From an uncultured Bacilli bacterium (GTDB taxonomy: Bacteria > Bacillota_I > Bacilli_A > RF39 > UBA660): a DNA stretch of 64,000 nucleotides. Of the stretch, positions 53,302 through 63,929 are shown one piece after another. A program made the position numbers and the translations under genes. Position 1 is the first letter of the stretch, and each line of letters opens with the position of its first letter. The notes under the pieces are model-generated. The model saw nothing but the letters and a program-made list of their open reading frames with translations. It was not told the DNA's origin and ran no database searches. Location: contig CAKOLB010000002.1 of assembly GCA_934096125.1 (NCBI GenBank), positions 41,293-105,292 on the forward strand, given 5' to 3'.

Positions 53302-53506
53302 AAATGTTACTAACAAGGTCAATGTTATCGATAACCTTCTCTATTTTGTCACTAGTCCTTTCTTTATATTTACTTTTCATTTCTTTAACAAACATTTCAT
53401 AATTCATCTCTCCTCGGTTTAAATATTTTATATACTGGGAGTTTTCCTTTAGAAGTTCGTAGCTTTTAGGGTCGTTTTTAAATGCTATGATATCTTTAGT
53501 AGTCAT
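53285..53506 (-). CDS. hypothetical small protein (paralogous to the next ORF)
   Basis: NRGEMNYEMFVKEMKSKY vs upstream KSGEMSWQKFYEIYDLY. Confidence 0.4.
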   Translation of the reverse strand: MTTKDIIAFKNDPKSYELLKENSQYIKYLNRGEMNYEMFVKEMKSKYKERTSDKIEKVIDNIDLVSNILDIFK

Positions 53507-53880
53507 TAGTCTTCAAAAAATTTATTTAAAGGTCTTGGACTTACTGGACCTTTATTTAGAGAGTTTATCGCATTTATTGGACTTTCTTTTTTGGTTAAAT
53601 CTTGCATAAAGTCAATAGCTTTTTGGGCTGTATTAACGTGATTTTTAATCGAGTTAACATCCACATTTTTAACCATATTAGTTATTTTATTAATGCTGTC
53701 AAAAGCACTTTCTCTATTTCCTAAAACGTATTTATTCCAAACATCACTATTTTCTCCATATAAATCATATATTTCATAAAATTTTTGCCAAGACATCTCG
53801 CCACTTTTCACATAAGAGATAAGTTCAGGTTTTGTTTTAATAAATTTTTTAAATTCTTCATGTTTCATGTTTATCACCAC
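53506..53880 (-). CDS. hypothetical small protein
   Basis: 124 aa; shared motif with 53285-53506. Confidence 0.4.
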   Translation of the reverse strand: MVINMKHEEFKKFIKTKPELISYVKSGEMSWQKFYEIYDLYGENSDVWNKYVLGNRESAFDSINKITNMVKNVDVNSIKNHVNTAQKAIDFMQDLTKKESPINAINSLNKGPVSPRPLNKFFED

Positions 53881-61219: not shown

Positions 61220-61352
61220 AAACTTTCCTCCTTTATAAGTCTTTTCAATATTATTGTATGGCTCTAAAAAATAATTGTGAGGGCATTAAATCTAGAAATT
61301 TTCTTGTACTTAAAGAAAATAATTGTTATAATACTTGCGAGGAGAAATGAAA

Positions 61353-62405
61353 ATGAAGAAAAAAATAATTGGTTTATGTGTTATTATGCTTCTAGCTGGA
61401 GGTTGTGGAAAAGTTCCTAAACTGGAAAATGGTCAAGAAGCTGTGGTAAGTTTTGAAAATGGGGATAAGATAAGTGTTGATGACTTTTATAATAAGATAA
61501 AAGATGATTTTGGACTTGATACTTTAGTAACAATGGTAGATACTTATATTTGTGAAAAAGAATTTAAAGATTACAAAGATACGGCGAAGAAGAATGCTCA
61601 AGCTTATATTGATGCCTTTATTGAACAATATGGTAGTAAAGAAAAGTTTTTAGAAGCTTTACAAAGTCAAACAAGTTATCAAACAATTGAAGCCTATCAA
61701 GATTATATGTATCTTGCAAACTTACAAAGTCATGCAATTGATGAATATTCAAAAGAACAAATAACAGATGAAGAAATAGAAAAGTATTATAATGAAGAAG
61801 CAATTGGAGATATGGAAATTAGTCATATTCTTATTACATCTGATGTAAAAAAAGATGCTAGTGATGATGATAAGAAAAAGGCTGAAGAAACTGCGAAAAA
61901 GAAAGCTGAAGAAGTAATTGAAAAGTTAAATACTGCGAAGAAAAATGGGGAAAATATTACTAAAACATTTACTAGTTTAGCTAAAGAGTACTCAAAAGAT
62001 GATGATACTAAGAATAAAGGTGGTGCACTTGGCAAAATTAATTATGGAGACTTAGACAGTAACTATGATGAATTAATTGATGCTGCAAAGAATTTAAAAG
62101 ATGGTGAATACTCTACAAGTGTTATTACAACTGAGTTAGGTTATCATGTTATCTTAAAGACAAAAAGTTATGAAAAAGAGAAACTTGAAAATATAAAAGA
62201 AGAAATTAGAGAAACACTTGGAAAGAGATATGCTGAAAATAATAAGAATAGTTTAGGACTTACAGCTTTACAACACTATAGAAAAAAATATGGTATGGAA
62301 ATTCAAGATAAAGAAATGAAGAAACAATATTCAAATTATATTCAAAATGCTCTTGCAAGTGTCAATAGCAGTAGTACTTCATCTAGTGATAGTTCAAGCA
62401 ATTAA
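61353..62405 (+). CDS. prsA: foldase lipoprotein PrsA (parvulin-type PPIase)
   Basis: Lipobox LLAGGCG; parvulin domain EISHILIT...GGALGKI..GYHVI. Confidence 0.8.
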   Translation: MKKKIIGLCVIMLLAGGCGKVPKLENGQEAVVSFENGDKISVDDFYNKIKDDFGLDTLVTMVDTYICEKEFKDYKDTAKKNAQAYIDAFIEQYGSKEKFLEALQSQTSYQTIEAYQDYMYLANLQSHAIDEYSKEQITDEEIEKYYNEEAIGDMEISHILITSDVKKDASDDDKKKAEETAKKKAEEVIEKLNTAKKNGENITKTFTSLAKEYSKDDDTKNKGGALGKINYGDLDSNYDELIDAAKNLKDGEYSTSVITTELGYHVILKTKSYEKEKLENIKEEIRETLGKRYAENNKNSLGLTALQHYRKKYGMEIQDKEMKKQYSNYIQNALASVNSSSTSSSDSSSN

Positions 62406-62409
62406 AAAA

Positions 62410-62440
62410 ATTGAGTTGTTACGCTCAATTTTTTTGTTTT
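62410..62440. terminator. bidirectional rho-independent terminator between prsA and the cotZ-like gene
   Basis: ATTGAG-ttgttacg-CTCAAT flanked by A-run and T-run. Confidence 0.6.
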
Positions 62441-62885
62441 AGCATAAACAGTCTACATATGTATCTGATAAGCATCGAATGCAACATAGGCAACTGCAGT
62501 CCATTGTGAAGAATACGTTAGTTGCTGCATAAGGATATATGCTAGCTTCATCAGTATTATCTGCTAAAACTCTAAAGGTACAACAATTTCCTTCAATCTT
62601 CTCTACTCTAAATACATTAGAACATGTTGATGTTACGCTCTGACCTTCACAACCGATGGTTGAATCTTTAGTTATTGGCATGCTAAATGGTACTCCATTT
62701 CCTGCACAAGTATATAACATAACTGGTCTAGTATTACATATTAAACAATTTGTTCCCCCACCAAGCACTGGTCTATCGCAAGTTTGTAAGCAATTGTCTG
62801 GACAAGCATTTTCTTGAAGTACTAAAATTACACAAAGAATTTCATTGATGCAGTTGCCAGTTTTATTATTACTTTGATTATTCAT
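62439..62885 (-). CDS. cysteine-rich CotZ/CotY-like spore coat/exosporium protein
   Basis: 148 aa with 20+ Cys; FRVEKIEGNCCTFRVL resembles CotY/CotZ FFRVEKL..CCATL; C-terminal CSCLCCIRCLS. Confidence 0.55.
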   Translation of the reverse strand: MNNQSNNKTGNCINEILCVILVLQENACPDNCLQTCDRPVLGGGTNCLICNTRPVMLYTCAGNGVPFSMPITKDSTIGCEGQSVTSTCSNVFRVEKIEGNCCTFRVLADNTDEASIYPYAATNVFFTMDCSCLCCIRCLSDTYVDCLC

Positions 62886-63064
62886 AAACTTTCACCCTTT
62901 CATGTACTTTCATTATTAATTTATGAAAAAGAGAAAAAAGAGTGTATGCTAACAGGTCAAAGACTATGAATTTATTTTTTCATGTCCTTGACCTGGTCAA
63001 TTTGTTAAATTTCCACTGGATTGTCATTCGCACCAATCATAAGCGTAAACATTTACTAAATCAC

Positions 63065-63610
63065 CTAAATATCAACATCAATATCCTCTTCATTGCTTCC
63101 AAAAATGTTATTTTGATTTTCTATATAATCTTTGCACTTGTTTTCTAGCAATTTAAAATCACAACATCTTTCTTTAACTTTTTCAGGTAAGTATCCTTTA
63201 TTATATTGTAATGTAAAATGTCTAATTTTTGCAAATAAATCCTTCTTATGATTATTAATAAATGTAGTCTGGTCTTCAACTAATGTTTTATATTTTTCAT
63301 CGGTAATCGTCGGCAAGACTTCGGTAATACACTCAATTGGGGTCGGTATCATGTTATTAATATTTATAATTCCTAACTCACCATTTTTAATTTTGAATAT
63401 ATCAACTGCCTTACTACTCATTTTTAAATGCTTCAGTTTTGGACTAGATAATGGTGCAAAATAATTTAATTCATTAAATGTATAAACTACACCTATATAT
63501 GGTCGTGTCATTTTTTTATTATATGCCACTTTAGAATCATATTTTCGTAAATAATTGATATAGTTCTCATCTAAATAATATATTTTTAAACTTTTTGTCA
63601 TAATCATCAA
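63065..63610 (-). CDS. toxN: ToxN/AbiQ-family type III toxin (endoribonuclease)
   Basis: KIYYLDENYINYLRKYDSKV...RPYIGVV...NYFAPLSSPK...FKLLENKCKDY matches AbiQ/ToxN conserved blocks. Likely start is the third ATG (63601, MTKSL) 10 nt after AGGAG. Confidence 0.75.
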   Translation of the reverse strand: MMIMTKSLKIYYLDENYINYLRKYDSKVAYNKKMTRPYIGVVYTFNELNYFAPLSSPKLKHLKMSSKAVDIFKIKNGELGIININNMIPTPIECITEVLPTITDEKYKTLVEDQTTFINNHKKDLFAKIRHFTLQYNKGYLPEKVKERCCDFKLLENKCKDYIENQNNIFGSNEEDIDVDI

Positions 63611-63613
63611 ACT

Positions 63614-63646
63614 CCTAAAACAAAAGCTAGGAAGTTACCCTAGCTT
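63614..63646 (-). terminator. intrinsic terminator between antitoxin repeats and toxN (read-through control point)
   Basis: Minus-strand AAGCTAGGG-taacttc-CCTAGCTT followed by TTGTTTT. Confidence 0.6.
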
Positions 63647-63655
63647 ACTTTTTTT

Positions 63656-63756
63656 ACTCCCTACTATGGCAAGGGTATTCCAACTTTTTTTACTCCCTAC
63701 TACGGCAAGGGTATTCCAACTTTTTTTACTCCCTACTATGGCAAGGGTATTCCAAC
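63656..63756 (-). ncRNA. toxI: ToxI/AntiQ-like antitoxin RNA: 3 tandem 36-nt repeats
   Basis: Three copies of actccctacta(t/c)ggcaagggtattccaac, each followed by a 7-nt T-run (period exactly 36). Same strand and immediately upstream of toxN. Confidence 0.75.
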
Positions 63757-63819
63757 TTTTTATGAAACATTGCTGTTTCTTTGTTATTATATGAAGTTTC
63801 CCTCATTTAATACATATAT

Positions 63820-63848
63820 AATGTACCACATTTCTCAGCATTTGTAAA
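63820..63848 (-). promoter_or_regulatory. candidate promoter for the toxI-toxN transcript
   Basis: Minus strand TTTACA-17 nt-TACATT (TG at -15/-14) ~55 nt upstream of the first repeat; an alternative perfect TATAAT sits at 63786-63791. Confidence 0.3.
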
Positions 63849-63929
63849 TATCTTACAATTTTATTTAGTGTGCTAAAAGTTAGTGATTTACTTTTTTGAG
63901 ATATTTGTTATAATTAGATTGGTGATAGA

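Follow-up and report, generated by a model that had tools for sequence, protein, structure and literature searches.

What is the array of 36-nt repeats that stands ahead of a ToxN/AbiQ-like gene in an uncultured Bacilli bacterium, and what might it do for its host? We addressed this question in a 64,000-nucleotide stretch of contig CAKOLB010000002.1 (here called the window, with positions counted from its first letter), in which an earlier note had proposed an unannotated type III toxin-antitoxin (TA) locus with the canonical toxIN/abiQ-antiQ architecture. That architecture is borne out, as toxin profile and fold, array, terminator, promoter and ToxI-like units were all found. The locus is very probably a complete, intact ToxIN_Bt-like cassette of the toxIN family, chromosomal and about 0.8 kb long. 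Read along the minus strand, it comprises a sigma-70-type promoter, a two-hairpin leader, a 3.2-copy array, an intrinsic terminator, a ribosome-binding site (RBS) and toxN. At the molecular level, we are highly confident in reading it as a promoter driving a repeat RNA that is followed by a terminator, processed by ToxN and bound with it in a closed complex. The anatomy is seen in the sequence, and we infer the biochemistry (transcription, processing, toxicity, antitoxicity and complex stoichiometry) from solved homologues.

The predicted toxin matches the Pfam family ToxN_toxin (PF13958) over profile positions 1-159 of 159 (E=1.9e-41) and the AbiQ profile of PADLOC (4.2e-38), as the earlier note had supposed for the open reading frame (ORF), and the blocks NYFAPLSSPK, PYIGVV and LLENKC that it had picked out are all present. 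An NCBIfam scan of the toxin gave no match. In the Protein Data Bank (PDB), the sequence matches are ToxN_Bt (4ATO, 4.9e-20), ToxN_Pa (2XD0, 7.4e-13), E. coli ToxN (7D8O, 4.3e-12) and AbiQ (4GLK, 3.5e-11). An AlphaFold2 model built with 50 homologues reaches a predicted local distance difference test (pLDDT) score of 90.3 and a predicted template modelling (pTM) score of 0.83. Using this model in Foldseek, we recovered 7D8O, 2XD0, 4ATO and 4GLK as the only significant PDB matches, with template modelling (TM) scores of 0.73-0.75 (TMq) and 0.78-0.81 (TMt). ToxN homologues have a Kid/MazF-like core to which ToxN-specific parts are added, and MazF appears in that search only as an insignificant tail match.

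The ToxN domain spans residues ~5-159 and carries the expected catalytic positions. The active site of ToxN_Pa and ToxN_Ec is formed by Lys33, Thr52, Ser53 and Lys55 (PMC5086642), with which R33, S52, S53 and K55 of the window protein align. G37, A49-P50-L51, Y104 and Q111, which align with catalytic or essential residues of ToxN_Pa/ToxN_Ec, are conserved too, and ToxN_Bt and E. coli clusters 4 and 5 likewise have Arg in place of Lys33. Outside the Pfam domain, the protein ends in an acidic C-terminal tail (residues ~163-178, 63065-63112, FGSNEEDIDVDI), which is poorly modelled (pLDDT <50 for residues 172-178). Similar tails are found in some members of the clade (e.g. FEESKDDFDIDIIEE and NLDNDDIDLII), and most are without one.

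Tandem Repeats Finder (TRF) reports one array upstream of toxN, with a period of 36, 3.2 copies, 97% matches and a score of 223, and a pattern search for the 36-mer with at most one mismatch returns 3 occurrences vs 0.00 expected from 100 shuffles. Both recover the three head-to-tail units that the earlier note had described on the strand of the ToxN ORF. Two details needed amending: the units are not perfect, as unit 2 carries G for A at 63703, and the array runs from 63761 to 63647 rather than over 63656-63756, with its 3' end 46 nt upstream of ATG 63601. For comparison, we used 10 loci from species-representative genomes and 80 from metagenomes, with ToxN relatives 41-91% identical. TRF detects a tandem array upstream of toxN in 75/90 of these related loci (34-38 nt, 2.1-4.4 copies), and many of the loci without one have a single unit or a cut contig. 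Among the 76 arrays scored (75 relatives and the window, from 91 upstream regions), 64 have a period of 36 nt and nine one of 35 nt, and the copy number is 3.2 in 38 and 3.0-3.4 in 54. Repeat number and period had been taken to lie between those of ToxI and AntiQ; instead, 36 nt x 3.2 is the modal form of the clade to which the window belongs.

The units can be recognized as ToxI RNA. The clade covariance model R1, which aligned 100 units (64 distinct), finds only three units in the 64 kb, at 57.1, 52.6 and 57.1 bits. At gathering thresholds, Rfam yields a tRNA and nothing else in the window, so that the array is missed; at a permissive threshold, the ToxI family RF02519 matches each unit end to end (29.2-32.1 bits, E 0.0016-0.0071). 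The window unit AAGUUGGAAUACCCUUGCCGUAGUAGGGAGUAAA aligns over its full length with the Rfam consensus AAAUUGGUGUAgCCUUACCGUAGUAGGcACuAAA, and this model consensus corresponds to ToxI_Bt. Conversely, when the clade model is run on real ToxI units from a B. thuringiensis plasmid (L099: AAAUUGGUGUAGCCUUACCGUAGUAGGCAC...), they reach 27-28 bits. Because of this end-to-end alignment and the scores of real ToxI_Bt units, the window unit is evidently homologous to ToxI_Bt despite its sub-threshold score, and because such scores fall below the Rfam gathering threshold, the RNA is missed by standard pipelines. The word "unannotated" in the earlier note therefore holds for the RNA, where Rfam at gathering thresholds is blank, and fails for the toxin, which is already named publicly as 'type III toxin-antitoxin system ToxN/AbiQ family toxin'.

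Covariation among the aligned units points to a defined fold. Each unit is laid out as a tail (AAGUU), GG, AAUA, CCCU, UG, CC, AUAGU, AGGG and a second tail (AGUAAAAA). Stem 2 (CCCU/AGGG) is paired in 90.6% of cells, outscores all slid registers and shows 22 double-change cells vs 7.0 +/- 1.9 in shuffles (0/500). Stem 1 (GG/CC), a helix unknown to the alignment model, is interleaved with stem 2; its pair G6-C19 is GC in 49 sequences, AU in nine, CG in one, GU in one and another combination in four, and its pair G7-C18 is GC in 64/64. With loops of 4, 2 and 5 nt, the unit conforms to the Group I ToxI pattern, in which an H-type pseudoknot has stems of ~3-4 nt, loops of 3-4, 1-2 and <=7 nt, and single-stranded tails (Blower et al. 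2012, PMC3401426). No pseudoknot pair is broken in any of the three window units, and formation of an H-type pseudoknot by each unit is supported by this covariation.

Three other folds were set aside. A nested hairpin in a +1-shifted register pairs 66.0% of cells against 90.6% and scores 0.125 against 0.284. Folding of the whole precursor pairs the repeats with one another, which we dismissed as an artefact of repetition. A helix between the loop and the 3' tail (UAGU with ACUA) is perfect in the Rfam/Bt consensus and was considered as a second pseudoknot stem; inspected by eye, it meets a G.G clash in the window and was dropped, and the 3' tail varies freely in relatives (AGUA, AGUU, AGCG, AACG, ACUU).

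A 42-aa ORF (63666-63794, plus strand, MARVFQLFLLPT x3) runs antisense through the array as a by-product of the 36-nt period. That it begins with ATG, spans the array and has a unit length that is a multiple of 3 would be the case for the repeats encoding a peptide rather than an RNA antitoxin; they could also be imagined as DNA-level iterons, protein-binding sites or an array like those of clustered regularly interspaced short palindromic repeats (CRISPR). We consider all of these negligible. In relatives, CCAAAG, CCAGAG or CCACAG stands in place of the plus-strand ATG, which reads CAT in the unit, and the nine arrays with a 35-nt period would shift frame at each unit. On the toxN strand, substitutions (G-U wobbles and A-U/C-G swaps among them) obey RNA pairing, which speaks against a peptide and a DNA element alike. 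There are no spacers between units, as a CRISPR-like array would have, and for ToxI_Bt, to which the unit is homologous, there is a solved complex with ToxN.

Upstream of the array lies a promoter, a feature that Blower et al. 2012 (PMC3401426) class as preferential for toxIN loci. Its -35 and -10 hexamers are separated by a 17-nt spacer. In related cassettes with unrelated flanks, TTTACA or TTGACA stands at an equal distance, and the place of the -10 is taken by TATATT, TATAAT or TACACT. Transcription of toxIN would start near 63813.

Between this putative start and the first repeat lie two hairpins. Folded alone, hairpin 1 has a free energy of -8.2 kcal/mol (z = -5.5, with 0/200 shuffles equally stable), and it is retained when the whole precursor is folded. 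Its consensus from 10 related leaders has 11 pairs, mostly invariant, and a motif search finds it conserved in sequence, as GUAUUAAAUGAG-loop-CUCAUAUAAUA, in the window and at least 22 related loci. Hairpin 2 (-5.6 kcal/mol, z = -7.75) differs in sequence between relatives and, compared by eye, keeps its position beside the first repeat. The loci with a two-hairpin leader are L001-L004, L006, L009, L019-L022, L027-L029, L037-L042, L044, L052, L072, L077 and L081; remoter members of the clade usually have at least one hairpin ahead of the first unit. The leader region matches no Rfam family, and we found no mention of a two-hairpin leader in those parts of the type III TA literature that we consulted.

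Hairpin 1 shows almost no compensatory change, which is compatible with its being conserved as a DNA site rather than as RNA. Several loci have sense-strand G-U wobbles, and these mildly favour a hairpin acting as RNA. A reasonable guess is that it would serve as a 5'-terminal stabiliser or as a boundary element for the first processing site. We offer only tentatively, and think it rather unlikely, that the leader of ToxIN_Bt-like cassettes is a functional module that has not been described before, formed by an invariant hairpin of 11-12 bp and a variable one at the first ToxN cleavage site. If it were, the leader might, as a 5'-end stabiliser or as a processing or boundary element, set the half-life of ToxI and hence the trigger threshold of the system, and the acidic ToxN tail and the strain-level number of repeats (1, 2 or 3) could tune the same threshold. 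In three loci (L001, L020, L021), the leader and the ToxI units are separated by two copies of a different ~33-nt repeat (AAAGTGGTTCTCACATCCAGTTAAAAGTGAACAAT / AAAGCGGTTATCGTATCCAGTTAAAAACGT), found ~75-140 nt ahead of the array; they may be a remnant of another antitoxin type.

The stem-loop that the earlier note had placed between repeats and RBS is there, as a 9-bp hairpin followed by TTGTTTT at 63646-63617. Its stem (63646-63624) contains G+C and stands between the array and the AGGAG, and it folds with -12 kcal/mol (z = -2.3). A terminator scan found 2 candidates vs 0.3 expected, the second being the same palindrome on the other strand, and in the related loci shown, array and toxN are likewise separated by an equivalent hairpin. 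We predict that it is a terminator limiting read-through into toxN. The ORF given as 63065-63610 is also present; its start and length were not correct. The mechanical ORF begins with TTG at 63610 and has 181 aa, and the real toxN start is almost certainly ATG 63601, giving a protein of 178 aa (MTKS...), because relatives begin with M[TAS]K[TS] at this place, public calls have 178 aa and an AGGAG lies 10 nt upstream. On the 3' side of the toxN stop, a long minus-strand hairpin (62953-62995; stem CAGGUCAAGGAC / GUCUUUGACCUG plus further pairs) has an 8-nt loop in its minimum-free-energy (MFE) fold, a U-rich stretch a few bases on and a regional z of -3.0. It stands outside the region conserved between cassettes and may be the toxN terminator.

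Table 1 Features of the cassette and coat-protein and foldase genes in the window.
Feature	Position	Strand	Basis or remark
-35 hexamer TTTACA	63843..63848	-	consensus scan
-10 hexamer TACATT, TGG before it (extended -10)	63820..63825	-	consensus scan
Leader hairpin 1, UAUUA-A-AUGAGG GAAA CUUCAU-A-UAAUA	63785..63812	-	5' end of inferred transcript
Leader hairpin 2, GAAACA GCAA UGUUUC	63764..63779	-	abuts first repeat
toxI array, 36-nt units 63761-63726, 63725-63690, 63689-63654 and 7-nt partial 63653-63647	63647..63761	-	TRF
Predicted intrinsic terminator/attenuator, 9-bp hairpin AAGCUAGGG-UAACU-UCCUAGCUU then UUGUUUU	63617..63646	-	terminator scan
RBS AGGAG	63612..63616	-	10 nt upstream of ATG 63601, read from sequence
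toxN, 178-aa ToxN/AbiQ-family endoribonuclease toxin (predicted)	63065..63601 including stop	-	Pfam PF13958
CotZ-like cysteine-rich spore-coat protein	62439-62885	-	directly downstream of cassette
PrsA-like foldase lipoprotein	61335-62405	+	
YlbD-type coat protein	53506-53880	-	

We assign the locus to the toxIN family because it combines a ToxN homologue, a same-strand array, a terminator, a promoter and ToxI-like units with pseudoknot covariation; every feature that Blower et al. 2012 (PMC3401426) require of toxIN loci, and that can be looked for in a sequence, is present. Membership of cptIN or tenpIN was rejected, as the sole Pfam family match is ToxN_toxin and the unit is 36 nt long; repeats at CptN/TenpN-family loci are generally longer than ToxI repeats.

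By analogy with the paradigm, the cassette would work as follows. A single constitutive promoter (-35 at 63848, -10 at 63825) would drive a transcript of the two-hairpin leader and 3.2 ToxI units. The terminator at 63646-63617 would stop most transcripts and a minority would read into toxN, leaving antitoxin RNA in excess of toxin mRNA. ToxN, as a sequence-specific endoribonuclease acting through R33, S52, S53 and K55, would cut the precursor in the run of A between units. This run is A7 in the window, and one of at least six A is conserved in the clade; cleavage inside it would be consistent with the A/AAAA specificity of ToxN_Bt (PMC5086642). Each released 36-nt unit, which by the toxIN definition would end in a 2',3'-cyclic phosphate, would fold into an H-type pseudoknot with single-stranded A-rich tails, and these tails would fill the active sites of neighbouring ToxN molecules, closing an inactive RNA-protein ring (3:3 in solved homologues). 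Were transcription of the cassette to halt or its RNA to be degraded, labile ToxI would be lost and ToxN freed to cleave cellular and any phage RNAs at A-rich sites, leading to arrest or death of the cell. Possible triggers are host shut-off by a phage, loss of the locus and a forespore that fails to inherit it.

We also compared cassettes between genomes. ToxN homologues at E<=1e-10 number 530 in gut metagenomes. Homology between genomes extends from ~63859, just upstream of the -35, to about toxN codon 163, and the flanks are unrelated. As homology stops at the cassette borders, we conclude that the ~0.8-kb cassette moves as a unit, a behaviour on record for type III loci in general (Blower et al. 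2012, PMC3401426). A ToxN relative of any kind is encoded in only three phage records, with identities of <=43%, and in annotated phage and plasmid collections no record exceeds 44% protein identity to ToxN. A search of viral contigs for the repeat core, as would be carried by phage-borne pseudo-ToxI decoys, gave 0 exact matches. In two relatives, toxN is directly followed on its downstream side by a second ToxI-like array that has its own promoter (L074, 1745-1852; L070, 1741-1800); in L074 this array is followed by a terminator and then by a gene that starts like lactate dehydrogenase (MNNLKTVVIIGCGNVG...), with no second toxin. The arrangement is either toxI-toxN-toxI or an orphan antitoxin array.

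Near-identical strains differ in the number of ToxI units, with three in the window, L015-L018, L102, L103 and L106, two in L012 and L104, and one in L011/L105. Units also carry point variants at loop positions 22-23, namely A/G at 63703 of the window and T>G in the first unit of L018. Contigs with the shorter alleles are named in two styles ('k141_' and 'MERR22 ... scaffold'), pointing to more than one assembler, and the variation between one, two and three units may be a real copy-number polymorphism or an assembly collapse of the repeat. Two relatives look damaged. L044 (1201-1714), whose ToxN is ~91% identical, has only one repeat unit and a toxN that is frameshifted around codon 55-60, and L009 (3001-3126) has a truncated toxN and a degenerate repeat; these could be decaying cassettes or assembly errors.

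Such damage, together with the varying unit number, would be expected if the locus in the window were itself a decaying or inactive relic. We regard this as very unlikely. The window ORF is intact with all active-site equivalents, as are its conserved promoter, leader, terminator and RBS and the pseudoknot pairs of its three units, and 83 blocks in the public collection list exactly this protein. Against four relatives, the ratio of nonsynonymous to synonymous substitution rates (dN/dS) of the window toxN is 0.07-0.09 (L044 and L004 were left out, as a frameshift or indel breaks the ungapped comparison). A dN/dS of about 0.08 indicates that toxN is under purifying selection.

Among characterized systems, ToxIN_Bt of the B. 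thuringiensis plasmid pAW63 (PDB 4ATO, RF02519) is the best solved-structure sequence match to the window ToxN. The two share the order of promoter, ~3 tandem repeats, terminator and toxN, the GG/CC and 4-bp stems, the A-run joining the units and Arg at the Lys33 position. They differ in that the proteins are 32% identical, the unit is 34 nt x 2.9 in ToxIN_Bt and 36 nt x 3.2 in the window, with the extra two bases in the A-rich tail, and ToxIN_Bt lies on a conjugative plasmid whereas the window cassette is chromosomal. In the sections of the ToxIN_Bt papers that we consulted, we found no mention of a two-hairpin leader or an acidic ToxN tail. ToxIN_Pa of Pectobacterium atrosepticum pECA1039 (PDB 2XD0/2XDD) has the family, fold, locus logic and 36-nt period in common with the window, and Ser53 and Lys55 are identical, with a conservative replacement of Thr52 by Ser. 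In contrast, Lys33 is replaced by Arg, Trp57 is not conserved in the window, the proteins are 31% identical and the 5.5 repeats of ToxIN_Pa are unrelated in sequence; it is plasmid-borne, cleaves at AA/AU and is proven in abortive infection. AbiQ/antiQ of Lactococcus lactis pSRQ900 (PDB 4GLK) resembles the window in its profile match (4.2e-38), a TM of 0.73-0.78, a Firmicute host and ~3 repeats (35 nt x 2.8; PMC5086642). As a relative of the window toxin, AbiQ is weaker than ToxN_Bt (3.5e-11 vs 4.9e-20), and it is plasmid-borne and proven in abortive infection.

Several points weigh against our reading of the locus as a working ToxIN_Bt-like antitoxin-toxin cassette. The homologues from which its biochemistry is taken are 31-39% identical in protein sequence. 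At the position equivalent to Thr52, the window has Ser and several members of the clade have Ala (APLASPK), and in E. coli ToxN the exchange Thr52Val abolishes toxicity; for the Ala, either the alignment is one residue off or the clade would depend on Ser53 alone. The unit scores reach 32 bits, under the RF02519 gathering score of 50 bits. In stem 1, two pairs are supported, one of them invariant, and a third, U5-A20, was rejected as unpaired in 28/64 sequences. Testing the 36-nt unit for a pseudoknot, as the earlier note had proposed, gave a divided answer: covariation supports the H-type pseudoknot, and the MFE fold of a single unit misses it, giving the +1-shifted nested hairpin, which is incompatible with the pseudoknot and not significant (z = -1.55). 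The cassette has no other defence, integrase, phage or mobile-element gene among its neighbours, and the ToxIN_Bt literature reports no evidence of phage protection (PMC4615649).

The setting of the locus bears on its role. In the source species, the cassette is flanked by a divergent gene for a phosphotransferase system EIIB component (PTS-EIIB, start ~63937, plus strand) and by the CotZ-like gene, beyond which lie PrsA, an ABC transporter and gyrB/gyrA-like genes. With genes for CotZ-like and YlbD coat proteins in the window, the host is evidently a spore-former, a gut Firmicute of ~30% G+C. The nearest metagenome-assembled genomes carry the labels uncultured Firmicutes, Bacilli or Erysipelotrichaceae. 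We read 24 contigs that have an identical CotZ-like neighbour; toxN occurs in all of them, and none has an empty site with PTS-EIIB beside the CotZ-like gene and no toxIN.

Abortive-infection phage defence, the role suggested in the earlier note, would be an extrapolation from ToxIN_Pa and AbiQ, which are bona fide abortive-infection systems (PMC3401426, PMC5086642). The same machine might instead be an addiction or stabilisation module, persisting selfishly or killing forespores and segregants that lose the locus. The nearest characterized relative by both protein (4ATO) and RNA, ToxIN_Bt, has been shown to act in plasmid retention during sporulation, with no evidence of phage protection reported (PMC4615649), and the present host is a spore-former, with a coat gene directly downstream of the cassette and another nearby. 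The position among housekeeping genes and away from any defence island, the occurrence in 24/24 contigs with the same neighbour, and homology that ends at the cassette borders, as it would for a horizontally moving selfish module, point the same way. On the other side, ToxIN_Pa and AbiQ belong to the same family and are proven in abortive infection, and a single-copy chromosomal locus hardly needs post-segregational killing. We see addiction as a possibility that deserves attention, although we lean away from it, and the two roles are not mutually exclusive.

As a discovery, the cassette carries limited weight. As early as 2012, a catalogue of chromosomal toxIN loci covered Erysipelotrichales, Lachnospiraceae and related gut Firmicutes (Blower et al., Table 1, PMC3401426), and structured RNAs upstream of ToxN in human-microbiome data have been proposed as ToxI (Fremin & Bhatt 2021, PMC8040213). 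The window cassette has the textbook layout of a known system, of which the RNA half alone escapes routine annotation; what is new would reside in the leader hairpins, to a mild degree, and in the acidic tail and the copy-number polymorphism. The comparison documents a large, coherent clade in gut metagenomes whose ToxI RNA is systematically missed at the Rfam threshold, and its alignment and covariance model could seed a better RNA family. The clade also provides clean natural covariation for the ToxI pseudoknot, including the 2-bp stem 1 that thermodynamic folding fails to recover. Finally, the leader hairpins and the within-species variation in repeat number may serve as a simple entry point to the control of the antitoxin:toxin ratio in type III systems.

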